64,000 nt of DNA. Origin: Callorhinchus milii (lineage: Eukaryota). Shown in pieces: positions 4,191 through 64,000 of this stretch. The notes under the pieces were generated by a model. That model saw only the letters and a list, made by a program, of their open reading frames with translations. It did no database searches and was not told the origin of the DNA. The translations under genes and the position numbers were made by a program. Where the stretch lies: contig NW_024704742.1 in NCBI RefSeq assembly GCF_018977255.1, positions 496,001 through 560,000 of the forward strand. The letters are read 5' to 3'. Positions within the stretch are counted from its first letter, which is position 1, and each line of letters opens with the position of its first letter.

Positions 4191-6221
4191 CTGGGGTGGG
4201 CAATTATTTGGGCTGGCGGGCCACTTCATGGGTTTCGGTAAGCTTCGCGAGCCACACACTTAATATATAGATGCAAATGCTTAATACTAGGTCAAAATCA
4301 AGTCTTATACTTGTACATGCATAAAATAAAATCTCTATAATTGACATTCATTGAAATTAGGTTAAATAAAAACAACCTCATTGAGCAGACGTTTATTCGA
4401 CATTTAATTCATTTAGTCACATATTGATGAGAACGTGAGACGCTCACTCAATGGGAAGAATGAAAGCGCTGATGCGCATTAACCAGACAGTTGAAGTCAG
4501 GCATCATCTCCGTTGATGCAATGCGGAGTACTACTGCAAGGTGGTCATTGGTCATCACAGATCTATGTTTTGATTTATTGAATTTCATCACAGAAAATGT
4601 CTCCTCTCATATGTATGTTGATCCCAATGGCACAAGCAGCCTCTGGGCATGAGCCTTTATTTTTGGAAAGGTATTCATTTAGAGAGGTGTAAAAACTGGG
4701 AAGCAGCACTGAATTGAATTGCTCCGCAAGCAATGGATCACATTGCAGGTCAATAAGCTCGAGTTGGAGGTCAAATGGGGCTTTGCCAACATCAGATGAG
4801 AAAGGTGAAGAGACCAAAAGGCAGGTCATTTTCGATCAAATTGAAATCCTGGAATCGGTGAGAAAATTTGGCGTGTAAGTCAAGTAGTGACAAAATTTAC
4901 TTTTTTTAGGTTAAATTTAGGCTTTGATTGCAAACAGTAATCTGCTGCGAAGTTGGAAAGTGGGCGAACAGCCTGTTTCCTATCTGATGCCATGAAAGAA
5001 ATCATTTCATCATAAGGGACTTGACACCGTAATACAAATGGTGCACAAAGATCCCCTTCCTTTGCAGTTTTGAATTCAGTTCATTCATGTGGCCCATGAT
5101 ATCAACGAAATCGGAGCCCAATTCGCATCATTCAGCTGTGGGAAATCCCAATCTTTTTGTTTCATGTCCAAAAATAAATCAATCTCTGCTCTCAGTTCCC
5201 ACACTCTTTTCAAGACCTTTCCTAAACTAATCTTACAGCCGTGTGATACAGAACAGCAGTGCGCTCGGATTCCAATTCCTCAAGCGGAGTTACACATTGC
5301 CTGTGGTTTAATCCTCTTGCTCGAATGTAGTTGACCACTTTTGTAGCTGTGTCCACGACATTGCTTAGTTTTAGAACACTTTTACAGAGGACCTCTTGGT
5401 GGGTAATGCAGTGTAGAAAAACAATATTCTGTTCTGGATTTGTTTCTTTGACTTGATCTTGAATTCTTTTCAGCAACCCAACATTTTTGCCTGTTAGATT
5501 TGGGCTTCCATCGGTGGTCAAGTTCACCAATTTTTTCCATTCCACTCCTAATTTTAAGATACACTTATTTACTGCCTCCAAAAAGTTCTTCTCCAGTTGT
5601 CGTATCTTTCATTGACTGCATTGACGCCAATTCTTCTGTGAGCTCAAAATGTCTGGTGATACCTCGAATAAAAATGATCAACTGGGCTGCGTCTTTGACA
5701 TCACAACTCTCACCGAGTGCCAGTGAAAAACCTGCACCATTGCTTACTTTATTTTGTAACTGCACACTTTTTATTTTCTTTCTTTATTTTATTTTTAAAT
5801 TTATTTTTATTTTATTTATTTTATTTGTTTTGTTTTTCCACCCACGCTGGTTAAAAAAAGAAATATTTAGAAGTCCATTCTGTGCGGAATATTCGGCCTT
5901 CAGCGTCCACTTTCCGCTTCTTTGATAAACTCATTTCGAATTAACGTCCTCTTCAGTGAAAAGTATTGCCGCGCTTGCTTGAAAATTTGCCGATCCGTAC
6001 ATTCCTGATGTCAGCCCTGATTCAACAATTAAGGGGGCTGCGCACAACTAACCCGTGTGATTGGGCCGATGTTCCCGGTCTGATTCAATTGCGAAATTTG
6101 CGGGACTTTCTGGGACTGAGCGAACTATAATTTTTTCTATTGCTGGACACAATGACCGGCCGGATAGAAGCATTTGGTGGGCCGGATATGGCCTGTCTGG
6201 GCTGTGTTTTGCCCACCCCTG
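4191..6221 (-). mobile_element. hAT DNA transposon (Charlie/Buster, SPIN/GTF2IRD2-like), internally deleted and defective
   Basis: TIRs CTGGGGTGGGCAA ... TTGCCCACCCCTG; degenerate 8-bp TSD gcctagag/gtctggac (NTCTAGAN type); transposase remnants inside. Confidence 0.9.
4448..5934 (-). pseudogene. Frameshifted hAT transposase pseudogene
   Basis: N-terminus MSLSKKRKVDAEGRIFRTEWTSKYFF; FSLALGESCDVKDAAQLIIFIRG; TTDGSPNLTG; HCITHQE; C-terminal dimerisation region ending ...HQRFHSSH*. Several frameshifts, and an A-rich gap at about 5767-5836. Confidence 0.88.
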
Positions 6222-6629
6222 GTCTGGACGGTCACAGCTTGGTAGCATCTAATAAAGATTCTGAGAAGGAACAAAGTTGTTTTTTTTTTAGCCCCTTAAC
6301 GTCTCAAAGCACTAGACAGCTAAGTACTGTCAAGTGTAGTGACTGTTTTTGTAGGCAAATGCAACAGCCATTTCCATCAGTAAGGTGCCACATACACAAT
6401 GTAAGGGTTCAAGAGGAAGTGCAGAGGAAAGCAGTGAGGCTGATCTCCAGTGACGGAGGGAACAATTAAATAAACTGTAGGTCTTCAGCCTTGAAAAGAG
6501 ATTTCCCACAGGGGACCCAATAGAGTTATATTAGATACTAAATCAAATTGAGAAAATGAGCTCCGAACTTTCAGATACGTCCAGACAGGAGACCGTAGGT
6601 TCAAGGTTCTGGAACAAGAGAAATGTGTA

Positions 6630-9808: not shown

Positions 9809-10579
9809 TTGGAGATTAGGTACAGCCAGAGCCCCAGATTTCAAATGTTTACCCTCCTATGGAGAAATCAGTTTCTGCTTGATTCAGATCAGGATCTTGT
9901 CGTGGGCGATGTTTGGGTTAGTCTCACATCTACTGCTAATCCAGGATTCAAGACTTATGTCCTTGTGTCATTTTTGAACAAAAAAAAACTTTATTTTTAA
10001 TAGGTTTGCTGCTTAATTTAGAAGCTAAGCAGCCAACCTATAGGCTGGCAAAAGGTGTCAAAAAACATAGGTAGTCTTGAAAGGTGTAAACGTAAACAAA
10101 ATGGGAAAAATAAGAGAAAAGGCAGGTCAGGTGAGTAACAGAGATTTGATCCATAAGTGTGTATCTGTTGCGAAAAAAGAGGGTGAGGGGCAGGTCTGAA
10201 GAATTATTCTGGGATAAATTCCAGTGATGATTTGCACCCCATGAAGTATTCAGCCTAAAGTGCCAGGTTAAAGCATTGCAGAGAATAGTGATGTGCGTTT
10301 TATTCTCGATTGTTTTCCCTTTGGGACAGGGTGGTCTAATTGGTGGCCCTCATTCCCCATTCAGTCCCTCGGTCAGAGAAGCCAGGAGATTGGCCTTTTC
10401 TGGGTGTCAAACGTAAATAGAGTAAATCTGGCCCCAGGAGGAATTTCTCCCCAAGTCTTCAGAATCAAACCGACTTTAACAATGACAGCTGGTACGTTAT
10501 ACCATGTCAACGTTTTTATTTGAAAGTTTTTCGTCCCAAAAAAAAAGATACCATAAGACAAAGGAGCTCATTTGAACCG

Positions 10580-10604
10580 TTTATTTAAATAACAAATATT
10601 AAAT
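10580..10604 (-). terminator. Candidate distal poly(A) signal with adjacent AUUUA motifs
   Basis: Minus strand reads ATTTAATATTTGTTATTTAAATAAA; it ends a 2.1 kb stretch below the stop codon with no recognisable interspersed repeats. Confidence 0.4.
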
Positions 10605-12734
10605 ATGGCAAATAACTGTAAAGCAATTTACACAGAAAGATCAGCTGTGTCTGAGATAGCTTATTCCAGAACGCAAGCCAAAGCTATGTGGTACATTTAC
10701 TGTGTGCAATAAGAGAATGCAAAGTGTGAACTGTATACAGTACATTCTGTGACAATCATTGTTCCTTCTTAATAAACACAATTAACCTGAGACAGTATCC
10801 AGCAAATGGGAATATCTAATCACATCTGTCAGTACAATGCCGTATTCATTGCCATCGTATTCTCTTCACAAACATAACCATTCCCAATGAATTGATGGCA
10901 AAACAAACCGTATGATTGTAGGCACAAGGTTACGTATGATATTGACTTCATGCCATGTCTTGAAATATTACAACATACTGTGGAACCTTTCAGCAACCAC
11001 AGCAAAAAAAAATATTCATTGCAATACCTACAAGGCCCGGTTGGCGGGGCTCAGACTGTAACATTTATGCTGAGATCCACTTGCATACTGAACACGTTGA
11101 GGCTGGGTGGTAAGAGAGTGAGTCGCCAACATGTGGCAGCAACAGCTGCTGAGATCTCTCCAAACAGAAACAGTGAAAGTCCCCCCAAAAAACCTCTGCT
11201 CAAGACAGAGCGGGTTCTCGATTCAGTCACCCGGTCAGAGTAGCCAGGGTGTCAAACGACACAGAAAGTGCGGGTTTAACGTAAAGTGTCCTGTGTCAGG
11301 GGACAGGTAGATACAACCAACCCACAAAAGGTGCCACAGGGCACTTGCTGCCAATCTCTCCCTCCCCACAAACAGAAAGGTCAGTTGTGTCTCACAGAAT
11401 TCAAGAGGAAATCGATGAATGAAAGTTTTGATGACTCAGATCAGTGCAGATAAGCAGTGGAATTTGTTCTAAAATTTAGAAAAGTGAAAATAAGCACATT
11501 TTCTCAGGACATCAAAGGTCAAACTTCCACTCCAGGGGTTCGCACCGACTGCAGTGTGCCCCGTGACTCTGTCCTGTCCTAATCTTGACCGTGAGTGACC
11601 TGAGCGCTTCGTGACAAGTGCCTGAATTGTGTCAATTGGCTTTTTACCTTGATCCAAGTTCATCGCATTCAAGGACACGAAAAGCCAATTGAACCCCATC
11701 AAAGCGCATCCCTCTGGAGATGGATGCTGCCTTTTTGACATGTTTGAAAAACTGGACCCTTAAATAATATTCAAAAGATCATTGCATTTCCCTCCCCCTC
11801 CCTCCTCCCAAACTGCCTGTAACAGTTACACTACAAGCTGACAGCACATGCTTTACAGAAAGTTTACAGAAAGTATAAATACAGTAAACCTCACAGACTT
11901 ATGCGAGTCTTACTGTACAATAGCTCCATATGCTCCACGCATTAACGTATCTTTAAGAAAGTTAGCTTCGGCTCGTCACAATTAAGATTTTTCTGTTTGC
12001 TCGAGCAGCAGTATTTGCGTATTGAAAAATAAATTAAATCATTCATAAGGCTAGTGTTAGGAATGTGGTTGACAACTATATGATCATGAGAACTTCAAAT
12101 ATCCAGAATAAAATGTGAGTGTCTGTTACACCCGAAGTCTAAGAATAAGATGCATTCTCATGCTGATCCTGTGCAGAAGGACTTTCTCATTAATCAAATT
12201 AAATCTGGTCAATTGACTAGGATAGCTTCAGTAGCACAGATTGAATGGGGTTAAGAAGCAAAACCCAGTAAGATGTCGCGTCACAGAATTGAAAGGTAAA
12301 ACGATAAGAGAAAGTTTTGATGACGCAAATCGGTGCGGTTAAGCGGGCAAATTTGTACTAAATTTGTTCACTTGAAATGAGAAAGCCCCATGTGTGCACA
12401 ACAAGACCGACACACCAGTACATTTGACATTCAAAAGTGTTTGACAGATCACACAGATATATGATATCTGCTCCAATACACAGTATTTACGTTTTGAACA
12501 AAAATCATACCTTGATTAGAATGCATAACTGAAGAGTAAAAGCATCGTCATGTAAAGCTATTTTCACAAATATTGCTGTGTTAAGAGTTCCTTAATAGAT
12601 AATAAATAATAATATATAATATTAACTGTTAAACTCGAGTGAGTTGAATTATAGGTTCTTCCATTTGGAATACGTCACAGTGGCTTGAGATGTCCATTCA
12701 ATGTCGGTTACATTTTTTAAATGCTTGGATGTGA

Positions 12735-12743
12735 CTACAAACC
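12735..12743 (-). CDS. IL2: Putative IL-2-like terminal exon 5, coding part (Gly-Leu-stop)
   Basis: Branch-like ctaat and pyrimidine tract cccatttctctctcag, then GGT TTG TAG in phase 0, followed by AU-rich sequence. Confidence 0.6.
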   Translation of the reverse strand, partial: GL

Positions 12744-15700
12744 CTGAGAGAGAAATGGGTTTTATTAGACATGAAGAACAACAGTGGTAATCAGTGTAAG
12801 CAAATATACAATAGAGCCCTGTTATAGAGGGCTTCTTTATAACACGGGTTTGCATATAACATAATTGGGTTGTGGATCCTGACTTTCTCTGATCTAAAAA
12901 TCCCAAATCCTGATATTGTGCCAATGAAATCCATTGCAAGTCGCGCTTGAAATCCAGTTGTCGCCGTTCATGAAGCATCATTGCAACTGGGATCCACTCC
13001 AGTACTGTACATGGAGCAATATCTGAGCTCAGTATCTCACCCAGAGAGCCTCCAACGATAAATCCCTTTCCGGGATAGGTTAACTCCTCATCAGTACACT
13101 TCACGGCAGGGATTGAAATGGAATGTCAGCACAGATGTTGGGTGTGTAGTAGGAGGAGATTAATTTCCATCCTTAATAGGCAGTTAGTGGACCAACGCTT
13201 GACACGTAGAGTAAGACTGGGCTCTGTCACTTTATTGGAGCCGAATGAAACTCCAGCCTGATTTTTCGAGGGAATTATGATTTCTTTAGATATAGGGATT
13301 GGCCTGTGTATTTCATACATTTAGGAATTTTTAAAATATTTTTACTGGTATTATTTCCCTGAATTTACCCATATGACAAAGTGGGGCTCAAAATATATAT
13401 TGTTTCTCTTACCTTGACAGCTGCATGGAATTTCTTTTGCAGATGTACATAAAATTGATTCAGGAACTGTTCGAGGCTGTTCTTCATGTAATTTTCACTG
13501 TTGGGGCAGTCGATCTGTGGAATAAACCAAGATTTACTCCTTTTGTTCAAATGTAAATATATCTTCAATGCAGAATGGTGATACGAATCATTTTGTTTTG
13601 TTCAAATCATTGTGTATTTGTTTGCCCACAAAAACACAGTCACTCCACTTCACAGCAAATCCTTTGAGGTGCTTTAGTATATTTGTCTTCCCGACGTGAA
13701 AGCCGCTATACTGAATGCAAGGATGATTATTATTATTCAACAACAGTCTAGTGATCTAAACCGGAGCTGTGGGAATGTAACAAAAAGGCAGCCGTGTATT
13801 AAAGCAAATTTTAACTTCCAAGATCAGACTACTCCAAAGGGTGTTTTACGAGGGAACAAAGATCCCTCGTTGTAATAAACAACCCTGTGTATCACAAAGC
13901 TCCTTTGCCTTTAAATTCATATGAGTTTCCCCACTTCGAAAAGTATTTTGAAACTTACATTTAAAAGGTTCAGCTGTTTTGCTTTTCTGTTCAGTTTTTC
14001 TACGGTATTAATTTGCATCCGGGATTTCTTGAGGCCTTTTAGTTCGGCCATGTAACAGGAAAGGTTATCCTAAAGAGGAGACAAAAGCAAACAAGACTGC
14101 TCAGCATTTTTCAAATACTAAATGTGCTATGTGTTTCAAAATACAAGTGTAACATATACCCTTTGAAATCAGCTTACGCTTAGAAATGTACAAGAAAACA
14201 ACAACAACAACAAGATTCCATTTATTGAGCACCTTTCACGTCAGGAGGACGTCCCAAGACGCTGTTTATAAGAACATAAAACATTAAAAGAGAAACTCAA
14301 ACTCAGTACAGACTGGGATTTAAACCAGCGAGATCCTGGTCTGTATAGTGAGGATCTGTCCAGTATGTTATCAGTCCCCTTTCCATTCATTCTTAGAGCC
14401 CTGCCCACTAAATCTCCTGAGGCAATTTTCTGCATTAATGCTACGAGTATTCCATCATCTCAATTTGTTTCCTAAAACTTTGAACCCTTTCCCAACAATA
14501 CATTGATCTAATTCCTCGTTGGATCTAAAAAAAAAGCCCAGTGGTTCAGGTTACCTGAAAAAGTAACGTGCAATCATTTCCATTTGTTGTAAAACTGAGA
14601 TAGTTAAGATGGCTAAGAATTAATATTAGTGAACACTTTAATCTGCAATAGCTTTAAGAGGGGAAAATAGATTAAGATGCATAGCTGATGGCCATTAAGT
14701 TCCCCATGCCATATAGGAGTCTATTAGGAAAGCAGGGCAGTGGCTGAGATACATACAGGACGGGCGAGTATGTGTGACTTTCACTTGGGTTCAGGCAGTG
14801 GGAGTTCAATGACAAAACGGTGTGTCATATTGGTGTGTTGAATAAAATCCACCGAGTCATCAGCAACTCGAGCAGAAACTTCCGATTGACAGAGAAGAAA
14901 CCGTGCTCTAACACAAAGGCAGCTTGCCTCTTTTCCATTAGTTATGAGATTTAGAGTAACACCAAACTATCGCTGACCAACTTCAGTGAACTTCCTGTCT
15001 TACGGTGGTTTGTTCAGTCTGCTGACTGTGCAGGAACTTCTGACTAAGCGCTAAGCGCATCGAGGACTATAGTTATCTTCCTGACAATGTCATGTCACGC
15101 AGACAGAACTGCTCTCATGTTTTCTGGTGCCTTGTTTGTGGCCCCACAACCTGCTACAGAAAGGAAAAAGCCCCTGATAGATAGGAAGTGGGGGATCCCC
15201 TGACAAAAAAAAGTTTCCGGATTTATTTACATAATACCACCGGTTGTCAATTGTTCAGTATGTTCTGTAGTTTGTGAAAAGCCAATAAGAGTCTTTAGTA
15301 CAACAACAACAAATTACACTTGCGCCGCACCTTTCACATCGGGAGGACGTTCCCAAGGCATTTGACAGTCAGGGATCTGAACCAGAGCTGGGGGTTGGGA
15401 TCAGAAGGGGTAGAGGGAGGGGAGGGGAGGGTTAGGATGGTGACCGAATGCGCGGTTGAAGAAGAAGGTCTTGAGACATGCCGTGAAGGAGGCGAGGTAG
15501 GGAACGAGGCGAAGGGATGTTGGATGGACTTCCAAAGGGTGAGGGTGGAGAGGCTGAAAGCCACGGGGGCGAGGGATGTGGATCAGGCCGGAGCCTGTTG
15601 AGTGGAGGGAGCTGACAGGTCGATATAGTATTAAGTTATACTGAACCACATTCCTGTCAGACTCAATAATAAAAAATTCACCTTCATGGCCCCAGACTTA

Positions 15701-17886
15701 ACAAGTTGCGATATGAGTATCTCTTCCAAAGGGTATTAGAGAAAGGGTTGACTGGTATTCTCAATGAATTAAGACCGAGCTATTTGATTTGGAGGAAGCT
15801 CCATCTGCCTTTCACTGATTACTCACAAACAAGTTGGTTCTCACTGTTGCTTTTTAACGCCCACAACAAACACAGACTGTGTAGAGCAGCATTGTGTTGG
15901 TTGGGCTGCACTACAGAGACACAATGTCAAACTATAATTTGCAATTTGCAAACGTAAAGGAGGAGGAAAATGTGCAAAAAAAAAATAATACTATCTAACA
16001 ATCATTAAGGTTTGGGATGACAGTATGAACCATTAATTTTGTTATTTAAGCAAATTAAGCATTTCAATTTAATCTTTTCTCTTATTGTGGTAGCAAAATT
16101 TACAAGATTACTTATGCTTGACTACAACACATGAAATAAGACTCCTAGATTAAACGTTCTCCACTAACTTTGTGTTGTGAAATAGACTAAAAGAAGATCA
16201 TACCAAATTAAACTAGCAAATAAATTGAATTTCAGGGAAGATTGAAGGATCTTGTAAGGTAATAATAATAATAATCTTTTAAATTGTCTTCAGCCTAGAT
16301 CAAAAATTTAGTCGACCCTTTTGAAATATAATTTAAAAACTGAAGTTTCAATAACATCATGCTATGGTAGCAACTCTATATAGATTATATTTCTTACTCT
16401 TTCCAATGCTAAATAAGTTGTAGCTTATTGAGATTCAGGACTAGCTCCTAAAAGCAGCTCTTGAATTTCTATTGCAGTTAGCTTAAAAGATTGCTATTTT
16501 CTGAAAGGGATATTATTCAAGTAGATAAATACAAGCGATCATTTAAATATTCTGTGATCTTTTAAGTATTCTAAGTGCAACTAGATGCATCTTTGAACCT
16601 TTTAACAAGCACACCGGAAACACCTTCTTCCTTCCTGTGATTGCATTCAACTGATAAACAGAAATACAAATTTAAAGATAGTGAATATTTTTTAATTCAG
16701 CATTATTTGAATAGAGAAATTACTTAGTGAAAATTTATGTCAATGAATTGCCCGTCAACCTTTACATCTTTCTATGAATTAAATAATTTTAAACCGGAAG
16801 ATGTGCTTCCACCTACAATGGATGTGTGTGTCCAAATCTCACAGTACTATTTAGAATAGTTACAACATAATAAGATGTGAGAAAAGTGCTTTGCCACTGG
16901 GATTGCCACCTGCAGTCCGTTTACTTGAGTGAGATGTTGCAATTAGGAAGTATTCACTGAAATACATAAACATACCTGCCAAAAGCAAGCTAAGAAAACT
17001 TTCTAACATTAACCTCCCCCCCGACTCTGAACCACTGAACTCTTGCCACCAAACAACACAAATTACTACGACTTGCGTCAGAAAAAACAAGGGTGATTCA
17101 CCGGCAGAATGATTAGGTAATATCACAAAGTATGCAAACTTTCAAACCCCTCAGCTCAGTTTGATGTCCATTTTCTGCCTTTCTATATCTATTTTGCTTC
17201 TCTCCTTAAGTTGCCTTAAAAGTGATCCAACCCTTAGCAGCTCTGGAGTGCAGTGCGTGTGACAGACGGGAATGGATCGAATACAATGCAACATTCTGAC
17301 TCACCCACTTTCAAAATGTCAATGTTGATTTTTTTTTTAGTCTTTCGCTTCTGAGCGTTTAGAAAGTGGAGATCTCTGAGAGCGGCTTTTCACATTGTGC
17401 GGCTTCTCCAGCCCCAGTTATGAAATATATGTCCAAATATGGATTAGCATTAGCCATCAAGCTATCAGGAACTGCAGATAAGACCTGACTATTGGTGGTA
17501 TATTCGGCCGTGGTCAGTCCTCGCTCCTAAGCAAAGCAGCATTGACTAGAGATGTGCTGATGTCTGTTACTACAACACAAAACCAAGCAAAGTGTACTTA
17601 CCAATTTGCTTTCTGTAGTGCGAACTGTAACGCCAGATTGCTGAGAAAATAAGGAGGTAAAGTCAGACTCTAAGTTTCATTCTATATTGAAACGAAAACT
17701 ACCGACAAAAAAAAAGAAAATCCAACGCGATGATGTCTCATTGCAGAAACTTACCCCAAACATTTTTTTCAAATTTCGGACATCCTTCATCATCTCTTTC
17801 AGAACCACATGATCACGTCTGGGAGCTGCATGAAGAACAGCAATGAAAGCAGCGAGGATGAAGCTGTAAAAGATGATCCTGTTCAT
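12735..17886 (-). CDS. IL2: Interleukin-2-like cytokine (IL-2/IL-15/IL-21 family), spliced CDS join(17886-17755,17640-17602,14069-13959,13514-13413,12743-12735), 130 aa
   Basis: Manually assembled exons, all with canonical GT-AG sites and phase-0 introns. 20-aa signal peptide followed by AP, as in IL-2. Helix A Asp (KEMMKDV), helix B LSCYMAEL (cf. IL-2 LQCLEEEL, IL-15 MKCFLLEL), helix C NTVEKL (cf. IL-15 DTVENL), helix D QFLNQFYVHLQK with the family's conserved Gln. Confidence 0.85.
13413..13514 (-). CDS. IL2: IL-2-like exon 4 (CD loop + helix D, 34 aa)
   Basis: Acceptor ggtttattccacag; IDCPNSENYMKNSLEQFLNQFYVHLQKKFHAAVK; donor AAG|gtaaga. Unspliced read-through would stop at 13365. Confidence 0.88.
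13959..14069 (-). CDS. IL2: IL-2-like exon 3 (helices B and C, 37 aa)
   Basis: Acceptor ttttgtctcctctttag, donor gtaagt; 111 nt open frame DNLSCYMAELKGLKKSRMQINTVEKLNRKAKQLNLLN. Confidence 0.9.
15300..15600 (-). mobile_element. L2-type LINE 3' fragment in IL-2-like intron 2
   Basis: AFSLSTLTLWKS...; (CAA)n tail; GGGAGGACGT stem-loop. Confidence 0.75.
17602..17640 (-). CDS. IL2: IL-2-like exon 2 (AB loop, 13 aa QSGVTVRTTESKL)
   Basis: Acceptor ccttattttctcag, donor gtaagt; 39 nt, phase 0/0, a typical short second exon. Resembles IL-15 TLYTES. Confidence 0.88.
17755..17886 (-). CDS. IL2: IL-2-like exon 1 (signal peptide + helix A, 44 aa)
   Basis: acacaATG start; MNRIIFYSFILAAFIAVLHA|APRRDHVVLKEMMKDVRNLKKMFG; donor GGG|gtaagt; 132 nt. 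Confidence 0.9.
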
Positions 17887-17988
17887 TGTGTCTGTGCTGG
17901 GCTGTTAAACTCACAGGCAGTGGTTATGAGTTCTTCGTAAAGAAGACTTGATTGAATTGAGAATAGTACCTACTACAGATGGAATGGC

Positions 17989-17998
17989 ATATATATAT
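17989..17998 (-). promoter_or_regulatory. TATA box of the IL-2-like gene
   Basis: ATATATATAT run about 105 nt upstream of the ATG. Confidence 0.6.
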
Positions 17999-17999
17999 T

Positions 18000-18370
18000 C
18001 TTGTTGGGAAAGGTAAGGCCCTCCCATTTAACATTTTGGAAATGTTTCTGAAACACTCAATGAGTAATCCTTTTCTTTTCCAGTGGCAAGGTGTACGTAC
18101 ATACATGCGCGTGTGTGAGTGTGTTTGTGTAGGGGGGTGGAGGATAGGAAGCACAAACCAGCACTAAGGCAATCTCCATATTGGGGTTAGGGAAACAAGT
18201 GAAAGTGGTAAATTCCCACTGTAGACCAGCACGATACAGCTTGAGAACCATCATCACCTCACTCCTAGCTGGAAAATGACAACAGTGTTTTCATTTTGAT
18301 TTTCCATATCGCATTACCTGTCCAATCAGTCAAATTTCAGTCATATCTGAACTTGTGAAATGAGTAATTC
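18000..18370 (-). promoter_or_regulatory. Inducible T-cell-type proximal promoter (NFAT/AP-1/kB/IRF-Blimp1-like motifs)
   Basis: TGGAAA cores at about 18037, 18076-18082, 18270 and 18300-18306; AP-1-like TGAGTAA at 18061 and 18361; kB-like GGGAATTTACC 18207-18217; AAGTGAAAGT 18197-18206. Confidence 0.55.
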
Positions 18371-23312: not shown

Positions 23313-25279
23313 AGGAGGCTCATTTGTTGTTAGAATATAAGATTGCATGATTTATTAAAGTTTGGTTAAACTCAATACTGTTAAAGTATCTTTAAAGTAC
23401 CTTTCATTACAATTATAAAGCTGACATTTGGAGAAATGTGGTGGTTATCCAGTGTGGTATGTTATGGGGTTTGGTGACATTAATGCATGCCTACAGCTTC
23501 CAACTACTCACTATGTGGTCAGAGGAGATAGTGCCAAAAAGGCTTTGTACATAGAAAAGGCGGAAGCCATTTGAGGTGGAGTAAGTTCAGAGCTCTCTTG
23601 TCCCACCATCAATAGTTGAATCAATCCCAGCTTTGATAGAAGCCTGGAGACGTCTTCTTCTGTGATCAGTTAGTGTGCAGACAAGGCCAATTCAACACTG
23701 GGATGAAAATCCACAGTTAAAACAGAGTTCATTCATTTCTTTTCTTCAAAGGTAAAAAAACTAAACATAAGAAGCTCAACAATTTTGGAAATGTCTTCGG
23801 TAAATCAATTGAGTAACGTAGCTGTGTGCATGCCATGTAGTTAAAGCACCAAAAAGATACTACTGCAGCACATGGGTGAAATCCCTCTCAGGTTTCAGAA
23901 AAATTCTTTGAAAGCAATCCATTGAATGTATAACAATTGCAGGCATGCCCCACGCCAGCAATGACTAACATCTAGGAAAAGCAACGTTTGTAAAATGAGT
24001 CTGTGTTCAATGGAGAGTAAAGAACGTGTAGGTGGGGGAACGACCCTCCCTTCTTCTGCCCATGGTGTCATCTGGAGGAAAGACCCATTTACTGTTCCAC
24101 CAAGTATGGACTGAAACTTTATCGGGACTTCCAACTTGGAGGTATCTACACGCCTGCAACTGATGATGTGCCATTGTCGAACAAGATACAGGTGATTCGC
24201 TGAGTCATATACAGCATCACAGGGAAGCAGCAGAAAGTGGTGCAGATTGGAACGGGCTGGGTTTTTCTCTTATCGGGTGGGTAAAAATATGCGTTTTCTT
24301 TACTGACGTAGTGAGTGAATGTGGGGATATGATGAGCTTGTACATCCCTTTTGTTGTGAGTTCCATGTAACTAACTGACCACAGCTTTCTGTAATCAACC
24401 ACATCTCATCTCTGCCCACAAAGTAAACTCTTGTAATGAACCACTGTACAAGTACTTTGTCTTTGCCAAAATATGTGACACACAGAATTAATATGCAGCA
24501 GCTGAATTTTTTTTACAAAACNTTTTTTTTTTTGTCTTTTAACTAACAACTGGCTTGTTAAAAACTGAATCACCCAAATCAGTCCTGATCTTGAGCTTGG
24601 TGCAGAAAATGATTGTTTTCAGAAAATGTTATTGAATGACATTTCTCCAAAATTTGCATATTAAAGCAAATTAATCTTTAATGATTCAACTGAAATCCAG
24701 ACATGGAATATCAACAACTATCCATAATGGGCAGGAGGACAGCCCCATCGCCCCCACCTGCCTTCCCCCCGCCCCCGCCCCCACCCATCCTGCAGAATAA
24801 TTGAAATTGGAGGATTATCAGATTCACTGTACTCACATGTAGAAGAGACATAGTACTAACCTCCCAAATCAGATATAGGGGAAAGCCATTTAGCCCATTC
24901 AGCCCTTTCAGGCACAGACCATTCCTTGGCCTAAATACTACAAACTTTCCCGAGGACCATCTTCTTACCATGTCTCTTATTAACTGGAATTTCCATGTGT
25001 GAGTGGGATGCATGGAACTCTATTTGGTTTGGATACTCTCTGAAGCCTGGTGATGGGTTTCCACACGTGCCAGACACCCGGCCGACCCAAACAAATAAAA
25101 TCCCTTATTAATTTACACCCGAATTACCTATCCAGTTCTCTCTTAAATCTCTCACTGATTTCTCTTGCATGGATTTCTGGGAAAGATTCCTATTATTCTC
25201 CACAAAACAATTTCCATGCTCATCTGGGTCCAGCCTCAATCTCATGATAAGGTCTTCATGTAACTGATGATGTAACTTC

Positions 25280-25612: not shown

Positions 25613-28600
25613 TGATGATGGACTCACCGAGGGAAAAGGTCATTCATGGATTATTTCGTCTGAAACCCGAATGCTGGCATTTTGAACCCGTATTATTTGG
25701 GTTGTTGCAAACCGCTAACTCTGCTGTGAAGTAACTATTATGCATAACCCATTGGCTTTGATTTCCTAACAAATTGATGATACTGACATCCGTCGATGAA
25801 ATTCAACTTTGATAGAATAATAGAACTTTTCAGCATAGTAGGAAGTCATTCATCCAATCTGGCCGTGTGGCTTGCTGGCAGAGCTATCTGTTTAATCCTA
25901 TTCTCTTGTCTTTTACTTACCCTTTAATTTTTTTTAAAAAAGCTATAATAGCTTCTGCTTCAACCATCATTGATTTGGTTGGACATGTCACGTCCTCAAG
26001 TTTCCTTACTCCACACGCCTCCTACTAGCGGCAATAGGAACTATTGTTGGTCGCGGAATATACTGTAAAATGAATTTAGGGTGTGTTGATTATGGCAGCC
26101 AAGTACACACAACAATCTCCCACAAGCTATCGTGGATCCAGTGACCAAATTATAAATTTCAAAAAAAAATTTGGAGGGATTGTTACCCCAAGAAAGTGAT
26201 CCACCTCCCTTGCCTCCTTTCAAGCCCATCTCAAGACCTTCCTCTTTGACTGTGCTATCAGGCATCGTCCCACCCCCACCCTGCCTTGCCCTCCACCCTT
26301 TTTGATTCTAACCCCCAGTTCGAGTGCAAACCCTTGACTGTCCAACACCTTGGGACGTCCACCCGACATGAAAAATGCTACATTAATGCAATTTGTCGTT
26401 GTTGTTGTTATTAACGACTGGTGAACTGGTTGCCAAGAAGGGTAGTGGAGGACAAGACACTGGACACTTTTACAAACAGTTCGATGCTGTGATGGGAGAC
26501 AATGCTGAAAGGCGTTCTTGATGAAAGGGGACAACATGAGTGAGGGTAGAAGGGTCCAGTTCACAGTCTGCAATTGGTCATTGCCTCTCAACACAGTACA
26601 ATAAGATGGGTTTGGCATTTATTTTTGTTGAACTAAATACAGGTTCTGATTAAATCAATTAGATTGGTCTGAATTGAAGGGTATGTTACAGGACGATTCA
26701 GAGCCACTTAATTTGGCATCACTGAATGCACGGTCACTAGACTTTACAGCATATCATGTGAAGCACTCTCCACATGAATGGCGCGATACCAAATGTAAGG
26801 ATTATTATTATTTTCTACAGTATCAACGACTGGGAAGGATTTGACACCCTGGCGAACAATGAGAGCTGTTCACTGATGGACTCACTACAAACATCAACAC
26901 AATGGTTCTCTGGCTCTATATCTGGTCACTGGCAACCGCTGGAAACACGTAGTTTCTCGATATAGGTAGGAGAAAATGGATTTACTTTCTTTGTAAACTG
27001 TACATGGTGGAGTGGAGGGGGGGACCGGGGCTGTGTGGGCGGGGTGGGTGGCGGGGTAGGGGGGCTGTTATGTTGTTATGTTATGTTGTGGGTGCTATGA
27101 GGGGGTTCTCTACATTAATAGTATTCTGTCAACTACAATATTTGCCATCGCGGTGACACTGCATCAGTGGATCTGCTTGTTAGGGTGGATTTTAAAGATC
27201 CCGTGACACCGTTCGGAAAGAGAGCAGTTTCTCCTGATGTCCTGGCCATTTGCTCCGTGGCAGAGTATGGGATATGTGCACAAATTGGCTGTCAGGTTCG
27301 CCCACAAAAGACACGTTACTTTACGATATATCCTGTGCAGTGCTTTGGGATGTCCTCCTGACTGTATCAAATTTAAGTATTATTATTAGAAGTAAACTTG
27401 TGTGGAGAAGCTAACCGTGCTCGTGTTTTGCTTTAAATTATTTTTACTGTTAATTATTTAAATGCTACCCTTAAATGGGAAAAGAAAGCCTTGGGAACTT
27501 CTCACATTATCTTGTTTTTGCCGTATTTTATTATTGTTATTATTATATTAACTTATTTTAAATAACAAGGTGAAAATTTAGCAGCCATCCTTTGCTTTAA
27601 AAAAGACTGGCTACCAGTTGGAATTTGCTTGATAGTGGAATTAGTTAAACAGGGTAATTTAAAAAAACAGGTGTCAGACACCTCCACACCTACACCGAAT
27701 AGTCTCCTTCTCTGCTGAGAATGTCTGTTTCCAAATGATTAATAGTGACTCCCAAAAACATAGGTAATTAATCTTTAAACAATAATGTAAATATATCTTT
27801 CAAGTTAATGTTAATCTAGTAAGTGGAATTCTCATTAAAGTCAATTTCTGTGACAAAGGAGAAATTTCCCAGAATTTCCAAAATGTCTGTTTCTTTAACG
27901 TATGTAGAAACCTAATCGCTAATTTGATGAAGAGTGAAATTGATTCGCTGGAACATCTTGATATGATCACACTTGGCTTCCTCCTTTTACCCCTCCTTTT
28001 TGTGCACTTGTCTTTGCCGTAGGTGGCAGCAGTTTCTGTTGCATTTGAAACTTCCTGCAGTTGTAGCTTTGTTGTTTGGGAATACCAAATTTACACATTG
28101 GCGTTTTAGCTGTGGACACCATTGACTTGGTGATCGTTAGCACCATATTTGGTTTCTAACAGTGTGACCCTGTTATTATTGTGTGATTGCAAACCTAATG
28201 TCAAAACACGGCTTATAGGCACTCAGATATTCATGTCTGAGCTAATGAAAGAGCTCTCTTAACCCAACATTGAATACTTACCCATCGATACCAAAAATTA
28301 AATATAAAACTATCAAATTGAGGCAAACAACTAGGCCGAGTAGTCATTCCGTATTTGTGCATATTCACATTTCTCACTCTCTCTTGCTTTCTTGATACGA
28401 ATAGCTTTGTCAGATACCAAAAACTTTTTTAAGAGGGATTATTACCCCCGGAAAGTGATCTGCCAATCGACTAACTACTTGCTGCTGGTAAACAGAGGCG
28501 TGTGGAATGAGGAAATGTTTCTCCCTACCTGGGAATCAAATCCAGGTCTTCTCGCTCGCGAGGCGAGCGCTCTAACCAATACACTGGAGGACTCCACAAA

Positions 28601-31120: not shown

Positions 31121-31727
31121 GAAGAACTAGACATTTTAGGTTCATTTACAGTTTTGTAACGATAAAATTTCAAGTGGAATCCAAGTAGTATTATTGCCTG
31201 AAACTACAATACATGTTCATGTTTCTTTCAAAACTCCCCTCTTAATATTTGATTCCTTTTTTTCTATAACAGTACTTAAACATACTTTCCACTTCCTTAA
31301 GCATCTGCATCTGCGTTCTTACAAGAACATGTTAGTAATGTTCTATTGATGTGCTGGCAGAAGAGGATCGCTTTCGGGGTTTTTCTTAACCAAAGATTGT
31401 ATAAAAATAAGAAAAAAAATGCAGACAATTAACCGATCACCACCAGCTGGTGTTGTTTTTAAACTCTTTACAAATATTTGTGGGGCAAAAACATAATAGA
31501 AAAGCTAAGAATTTTAATGTATGGAAAAGTTTCATGAATGAAATGCTTGGAAAACATGATTAAAATTTACAAAGCTATGTGTCAGTGTCAGTCTGGCACA
31601 TATGAAGAAACTGTGGTTAAGGTAACAAAAACTTATGAGTCTGCATTATAAAAACAATGACAAAATAATCCTTGCATTTGGTACAGCACCTTTCATGTCA
31701 GGAGGACACCCCAAAGCCATGGGTTGG

Positions 31728-62570: not shown

Positions 62571-64000
62571 AAACCTTACACAGTCAATCCTCTTTACAAT
62601 ATATTCTGTGAAGTGCTTTGGGATGTCTGAAAGACATGATAAGATGATAAGGTGCTATACCAAATGCAAGGTTTGTTATTAAAATAGAGCAACGTGCATT
62701 TCAATGGAACATCTAGACACAGTTTCAGGAAACAATCCAAAAAGGTACCAGCTTCTGATCAGCTATATCTTATCTGTTTTAAATATATCTTTCAAAGGTA
62801 CACAGTGTGAGCATTTGACAGGATCCTGTACTCGACATCTGTTGAAATATGCAGTTTTAATTTAATTCTCTCTTCTGAAAACAAAAGCATTCAATGTTCC
62901 ATAAGTTGGATCAGTTCTCTCGCTACAGAACGAAAACAATAAACAGGTTACAAAACCGCATGAGTTTATTCTTTATGTACCTTGGAAACTGAGAGCGTGC
63001 AACTAATATTTATACAGAGCACTGGAAAGTGTTTATGATCAACTAACTACAGAAGTGAGAGATGAGAAGCTCCACTAGTCAAAGTTACAGTTTTAGGAGT
63101 GCGGAAGCGAAAATAAACACGTCACTTGTGGGCAAACTCTATATTGTTATTAAAGACACTTTTCCTTTGGCTACAGATTTTTGGCCCATTTCCTTTACCC
63201 TGCAAGAGGTTGAAATCTGTAGAAAATGAGTGTGTGTTTGGTGTTTGCTTGTATATTATTGGAATGTGTTGACCGCAGATTCATTTGATGGTAAATTGTG
63301 AGTTGGGGCCCCATGTTCCAGCAATGTTGTGCTTCCAGAAAGGAATGTACACCTGAGATACGTAAAATAAATTATCTGTAATTGTGTGCTTGTTAATTCA
63401 AGATATTTTGTAAAATTGTGAGGCGTTAAATATGGACTTAGAATCTAAAGACAGGAGATTCTGAAAGCATTAAATCTACAGGAAAATCTACTCTAAGATT
63501 TGTCTTTCCACCTACTAGACACCTGGTTGTTAGTTGATTGGCGGATCACTTTTCCGGGAGATAATAATTCCTTCAAAAATATATAATAATTTGGTCACTC
63601 AATCCACCACTGTTTGTGTTCAATCGGCTGCTGAGTTTCACCAACAAAATATAGTCAATTCACTTTAACGGAGGGATCCCACAAGAGAGATTCAGGTGAA
63701 GATGGTTCTTTGGCTCATTTGAACTCATCCTTCAAGAATACTCGTCTATCACAGGATCAGGCTGTTCCTTAAATGAGTTCAGTGTCCTGGCCTCAACCAC
63801 CTTTTCTCATTATCTGTTTCAGTCATTAATTACCTGTTGAGAGAAAAAATGCAATTGCACTTTACAGTCCTGTATTTGTGCTCTCTGGTCCTGTGGCTTT
63901 AGCGTTTCTGAAACTATTGTTCTGAGTTTGCTTTCTCTATTTTAGTAGCCTTCGTACATGCCTCTATAACAGTTACCTTTACCAAATTTTCTAAAGTCTT

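Follow-up and report, generated by a model that had tools for sequence, protein, structure and literature searches.

The window analysed here is a stretch of 64 000 nucleotides of the elephant shark (Callorhinchus milii) genome (C1:496001-560000), which was examined together with 60 kb on either side (184 kb in all). In this region lie, in order, the exons of a gene with an A_deamin domain in the position of ADAD1 (plus strand, C1:449639-453005, 43-46 kb below the window), a four-exon cytokine gene (minus strand, L016:6052-3752 = C1:469752-472052, 24-26 kb below the window), the gene studied here (minus strand, window 17886-12735), a centrin gene's last exon, which encodes a C-terminal EF-hand (minus strand, window-relative 70666-70785), and BBS12 (plus strand, window-relative 86.8-89.1 kb). 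The latter is a single frame of 717 codons with a Cpn60_TCP1 domain, 100% identical to a Callorhinchus record named Bardet-Biedl syndrome 12 protein. The strand orientations are those of the human IL2/IL21 locus. Fgf2, Bbs12, Cetn2, IL21 and Adad1 are given as conserved neighbours of IL2 by Wang et al. 2018 (PMC6070626), and since the order found here is the published vertebrate order Bbs12-Cetn-IL21-[IL2]-Adad1, the gene studied occupies the IL-21 slot. It has IL2 on one side and centrin/BBS12 on the other, and shares its strand with IL2, as is the case in mammals and fugu. The place beside ADAD1 that belongs to IL-2 is filled by the other cytokine gene, which intervenes before the A_deamin gene and sits 36 kb downstream of the IL-21-position gene in transcript direction.

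This second cytokine gene has four phase-0 exons of 44, 19, 41 and 46 aa (L016:6052-5921, 5804-5748, 4320-4198 and 3892-3752, minus strand), a TATA box and five Cys in its mature part. Its fourth exon carries the stop, an AATAAA and an untranslated region (UTR) with seven ATTTA in 452 nt, and by this build it is the IL-2-like gene of the two. This fourth exon runs 12 codons past a weak internal GT (CAT/GTGAGC), then into the stop and its own UTR; when the two genes are aligned, this weak GTGAGC comes out one codon away from the donor that follows exon 4 of the IL-21-position gene. When the 184 kb were scanned for first exons that encode a signal peptide and end in a phase-0 donor, exactly two candidates remained once low-complexity sequence had been discounted, both on the same strand and of 44 aa each, the second being located 24 kb below the window. 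Within the 184 kb, helix-D-type motifs of the minus strand are likewise confined to the two cytokine genes.

The IL-21-position gene, all features of which are on the minus strand, is preceded by a TATA-like AATATATATAT (17989-17999, from sequence reading) about 100 nt upstream of the ATG. Exon 1 (17755-17886) encodes a signal peptide together with helix A (44 aa) and ends in the donor GGG/GTAAGT, in phase 0. Exon 2 (17602-17640; 13 aa, QSGVTVRTTESKL) lies between the acceptor TTTTCTCAG and the donor TTG/GTAAGT, and exon 3 (13959-14069; 37 aa) between the acceptor CTCTTTAG and the donor AAT/GTAAGT. Exon 4 (13413-13514; 34 aa, IDCPNSENYMKNSLEQFLNQFYVHLQKKFHAAVK) contains helix D. Every intron is in phase 0 and every donor reads GTAAG. 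Together, the four exons encode 128 aa; the mature protein has a single Cys from each of exons 3 and 4, so that only one Cys pair is possible in it. This is the build of a short-chain cytokine with the four family exons and phase-0 introns, as in IL-21; the sizes and phases of exons 1-4 are also like those of fish and mammalian IL-2.

When exon 4 was compared with the PDB, two of the 177,635 distinct sequences matched, weakly (E 0.17 and 0.22), and both were IL-21. The alignment covers 30 ungapped residues, including the Cys-Pro start and helix D, so that helix D may be similar to that of IL-21. The same search with exons 1 and 3 gave no matches, and with the exons of the neighbouring gene no cytokine was matched. 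With one exon of the neighbour, a designed repeat protein was matched by chance at E 0.1; the IL-21 match therefore counts only because it falls in the very family that the locus predicts. A protein search with exon 1 returned zero hits, as did exon 4 with its tail, both against longer proteins and against 1.84 billion representatives. Neither cytokine gene was matched by the Pfam families IL2 (PF00715) and IL15 (PF02372), genome-wide or in direct single-exon scans, short exons making this a weak test. Two further candidates were set aside: an exon-4 look-alike at 62926-63009 (E 0.18-0.5), which has 21 aa, a poor acceptor, no Cys and no partner exons, and a plus-strand frame at 31411-31560 whose weak matches to exons 3 and 4 were dismissed as chance. 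The elephant shark protein has one possible disulfide, versus two in IL-21, which speaks against IL-21, and two Cys pairs are also described as the ancestral family motif (PMC3894449; for the IL-21 motif, also PMC10528265). On the strength of locus and helix D, we consider it highly probable that the gene at 17886-12735 is the elephant shark IL-21 orthologue. It is probably also the ‘IL-21-like’ gene predicted from the elephant shark genome in 2014, when IL-2 and IL-21 candidates were both predicted in this species, with tree support described as weak (Redmond et al., PMC6238376).

The 3′ end of the gene can be read in two ways. The initial annotation described a donor AAG/GTAAGA at 13413/13412, an acceptor at 12744/12743 that adds Gly-Leu-stop, a read-through tail giving a protein of 143 aa, and an AATAAA at 13231-13236; direct reading of the minus strand found every one of them in place. 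The donor (13407-13415, GT at 13412-13411, phase 0) fits eight of nine consensus positions. Such donors are rare: across the 184 kb, the minus strand has only eight matches to [AC]AGGT[AG]AG, of which two are cytokine exon ends, the present donor and, in the neighbouring gene, the donor of exon 1. The putative intron 4 (12744-13412, 669 nt) is unique sequence, with a depth of 11-13 in the DNA run X2. It ends in a pyrimidine tract and CAG (12744-12759, AG at 12745-12744) with the context CCCATTTCTCTCTCAG/GGTTTGTAG (in short, TTTCTCTCTCAG/GG, the junction being 12744/12743), and a CTAAT branch-site candidate lies about 21 nt upstream of the AG. On a simple home-made pyrimidine-tract scale, the 4.4 kb that follow the donor contain 229 AGs, nine of which score at least 14, this acceptor being the first of the nine; the remaining three acceptors of the gene score 13, 16 and 16 on the same scale. 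The putative exon 5 would begin in phase 0 with GGT TTG TAG (12735-12743), and the spliced form would have 130 aa. The word micro-exon, used at first, does not suit it, as it would be a terminal exon with six coding bases, a stop and a 3′ UTR; as a prediction, a fifth exon is reasonable given the splice signals.

The two possible ends differ markedly in their ATTTA content. Past the exon-5 stop, an ATTTA-rich stretch (11735-12734, minus strand) holds eight ATTTA in 1 kb, with TTATTTATT (12609-12601) among them, against a background of 2.0 per kb and a 99th percentile of seven for 1-kb windows. None is found in the 150 nt from the read-through stop to the AATAAA at 13236, and only one in the 620 nt down to 12745, the enrichment being restricted to the sequence beyond 12743. 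If both 3′ forms exist, they would thus differ sharply in this respect. Of the earlier proposal of two isoforms with different 3′ UTRs, the difference between the UTRs is supported for the case that both isoforms exist (zero ATTTA in the 150-nt read-through UTR versus eight in the first kilobase after the exon-5 stop).

Comparison with known genes places this arrangement within the family. Like IL-21, the elephant shark gene has a further splice donor past the helix-D exon. In the ungapped exon-4 alignment this donor lies seven codons 3′ of the position of intron 4 in human IL21, an offset that makes the homology of the elephant shark intron 4 to that of IL-21 no more than likely. Unlike the last exon of human IL21, which encodes about 16 residues, that of the elephant shark would encode two residues only. 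As the initial annotation stated, il21 has five exons in mammals, and also in fugu, whereas it has six in most teleosts, according to PMC10528265; in the legend of Fig. 3 of PMC3894449, IL-21's final coding exon is placed beyond the family consensus. Since IL-21 genes are known to carry an extra 3′ coding exon, a fifth exon here is what the family leads one to expect, and no layout foreign to the gene. For IL2 and IL2L, PMC6070626 gives four exons and three phase-0 introns, and the read-through form of the present gene would have four exons too. However, the elephant shark gene departs from IL-2 genes in its consensus donor after helix D and in an ATTTA cluster 669 nt away from exon 4. Under the IL-2 plan, in which the stop and a UTR rich in AU-rich elements (AREs) belong to exon 4, one finds here an in-frame stop 15 codons past the donor and zero to one ATTTA before 12745. 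An alternative C-terminus of IL-21 also exists in the form of IL-21iso, which arises by skipping use of the last exon, and the read-through form would be a likeness of it predicted in a shark. IL-21iso is described in human and mouse as a membrane-bound isoform (PMC13312059). Our literature search found no publication tying an IL-21 isoform to an intron.

Starting from the sequence signals, the gene order and the four-exon IL-2-like neighbour observed here, the explanation that we prefer, and hold with middling confidence as a whole, is that of an IL-21 orthologue with one coding exon more than the four-exon plan of IL-2 and IL-15, spliced from 13413 to 12743 (13413^12743). The phase-0 GTAAGA donor (13413/13412) after the helix-D exon would be joined to the acceptor 12744/12743; this splice would append nothing but Gly-Leu-stop and would provide the mRNA with an ATTTA-rich 3′ UTR. 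The read-through form would then be a minor product at most, either with the intron retained or polyadenylated at 13236. From the sequence, we infer that the junction 13413^12743 is used, and we lean, by a little, towards the spliced product being the main form. Splicing is favoured because the donor is strong and of a rare kind, because no other strong acceptor comes between it and 12743, and because the ATTTA enrichment lies beyond 12743 only. The neighbour, with seven ATTTA in 452 nt, serves as a local example of what a cytokine UTR can be expected to contain.

The most serious rival, fairly improbable in our estimate, is a gene built on the four-exon plan, in which exon 4 would be left unspliced to encode 143 aa and the message would be polyadenylated via the AATAAA at 13236 or that at 12766, the ‘acceptor’ being in this case a CA cleavage site with a GT-rich element. 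The paralogue next door is built in this way, and since it reads 12 codons through its weak GTGAGC, four-exon read-through can be regarded as the family default. Yet the donor of the IL-21-position gene is of a strength found eight times in 184 kb, twice at cytokine exon ends, and the read-through UTR would hold zero to one ATTTA, the enrichment beginning past 12743. The tail itself (VRETIYILSPTLSYG followed by TAA at 13367-13365, together 13365-13412, with the protein ending in ...AAVKVRETIYILSPTLSYG) is open for 15 codons, about the mean distance to a stop at such a base composition (estimated at about 15 codons); a frame no longer than chance carries no weight.

The poly(A) signals speak for this four-exon plan. 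Two AATAAA lie within the ‘intron’ and none for 2.2 kb past 12743. The first of them (13231-13236, minus strand) could serve, from within the intron, as the poly(A) signal of a short read-through mRNA. The second is contained in CTAATAAA (12761-12768, minus strand), which can be taken either as the branch-site-like CTAAT or as an AATAAA (12766-12761) followed by CA and the GT-rich GGTTTGTAG. It is because the acceptor region also fits a poly(A) site in this manner, as AATAAA(12766-12761)-N15-CA-GGTTTGTAG, that four-exon read-through has to be treated as a serious rival. Past 12743 on the minus strand, a search for AATAAA or ATTAAA found none before 10585 (10580-10585), so that the 3′ UTR obtained with exon 5 would be about 2.2 kb long. 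Putative intron 4 and the acceptor are both spanned by an open frame of 158 codons (12649-13125, minus strand), for which a Pfam scan gave no match and which is probably due to chance.

Four sequencing runs were compared with the interval 10000-18200; none of them is recorded as RNA, and the type of run X1 is a guess. For 11900-14100, a search for runs likewise listed none recorded as RNA. In these runs and this interval, no 13413^12743 joint is listed, and all the joints that are listed fall into repeats at about 14.2 and 15.3 kb. The unique contigs of X1 are scattered and of low depth (11236-11396, 12719-13054, 14454-14672 and 17801-18200). The second of these (depth 3.7), the only unique X1 contig near the acceptor, is colinear across it, reaching 25 nt into the exon, and falls inside the 158-codon frame mentioned above. 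Being unspliced, this contig agrees with the four-exon plan; however, it extends about 26 nt beyond the cleavage site expected under that plan, and X1 resembles background. X1 has coverage in an intron as well as over more than 300 nt on the upstream side of the ATG, beyond the promoter, so that it may be DNA or nascent RNA and is unreadable as mRNA. X6 and X7 have no listed piece outside repeats, except X7 17956-18012. For elephant shark ‘IL-21L’, which may be the present gene, three spleen and two intestine reads are given in PMC4690019, and from so few published reads low expression is to be expected. Independently of these questions, the window holds many SINE-like repeats in which read depth is high, those at 14.2 and 15.3 kb being examples, and a 128-aa open frame at 5222-5608 (minus strand) resembles a fragment of a hAT-type transposase.

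Another view, which we find improbable, is that both 3′ ends are used and that this arrangement is older than the IL2/IL21 split. In the ancestor, splicing after helix D would have been optional; IL-21 would have fixed the spliced form and IL-2 the read-through form. The IL-21 splice would in that case remove 669 nt and bring the ARE-rich UTR. The neighbour would keep the weak GT and a tail of 12 residues, the IL-21-position gene having a similar tail but a consensus donor.

The initial annotation had gone in a different direction, seeing an IL-2-like gene with an IL-21-type fifth exon, a possible relic of the IL2/IL21 duplication giving two isoforms. A Glu in exon 3, when aligned by eye, falls on E47, a residue which according to PMC3894449 is retained in IL-2/15/15L and absent from most IL-21, and the assignment of shark genes to the IL-2 and IL-21 families is described as weakly supported by the published trees (PMC6238376). 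Against this, the slot of IL-2 beside A_deamin is occupied by a separate, classic four-exon gene with an ARE-rich UTR, the present gene is found next to centrin and BBS12, and its exon 4 matches IL-21 only (E 0.17 and 0.22 in the PDB). Thus, the identity as an IL-2-like gene is not supported and this reading as a whole is improbable, the earlier interpretation being partly supported through its description of the 3′ end.

Returning to the five-exon IL-21, the donor could be real and yet be spliced further downstream, for example to 11290, adding DTLR, or to 11102, adding a tail of 24 residues. Eight more AGs in the 4.4 kb do score like that at 12743, four of them one point above it. However, 12743 is the first strong AG past the donor and comes with a branch-site candidate, and a longer intron would remove the ATTTA-rich 12734-11735, leaving the enrichment unexplained; we therefore hold a more distant acceptor to be hardly likely. 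Finally, that the gene is silent or decaying, with 3′ signals that are functionless today, is very unlikely: three large searches ended without a protein match and exons 2-4 are without RNA contigs in the four runs (none recorded as RNA), but in the gene all four exons are open, their phase-0 splice sites fit the consensus, and both a signal peptide and a TATA-like element are present; the few spleen and intestine reads for ‘IL-21L’, which may be this gene, would point the same way.

The practical value of these observations is a corrected model and a name, most likely IL-21 and not IL-2, for a cytokine gene missing from the protein collections that were searched. Annotation easily overlooks IL-21 in sharks; that of the nurse shark had to be added by hand (PMC10529500). 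If the two-codon last exon and the read-through were both real, the elephant shark would provide an early-branching case in which the choice of 3′ end sets the ARE content of the IL-21 message; this, if true, would be of modest interest to comparative immunologists and no surprise. The gene is an ordinary representative of a known kind, and is useful mainly as a corrected gene model.

Upstream of the coding region, the IL-21-position gene also shares a motif with its neighbour: ATTTCCAAAAT is present at 18033-18043 (minus strand) and once upstream of the IL-2-like gene (L016 about 6222-6232, minus strand). The window contains three copies versus 0.14 expected, the other two being located at 23782-23792 (minus strand) and 27874-27884 (plus strand). 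It resembles the composite AP-1/NFAT sites known from cytokine promoters. TTACTCA lies about 20 nt upstream of two of the copies, those at 18.0 and 23.8 kb, and the one at 23.8 kb may belong to an upstream enhancer.
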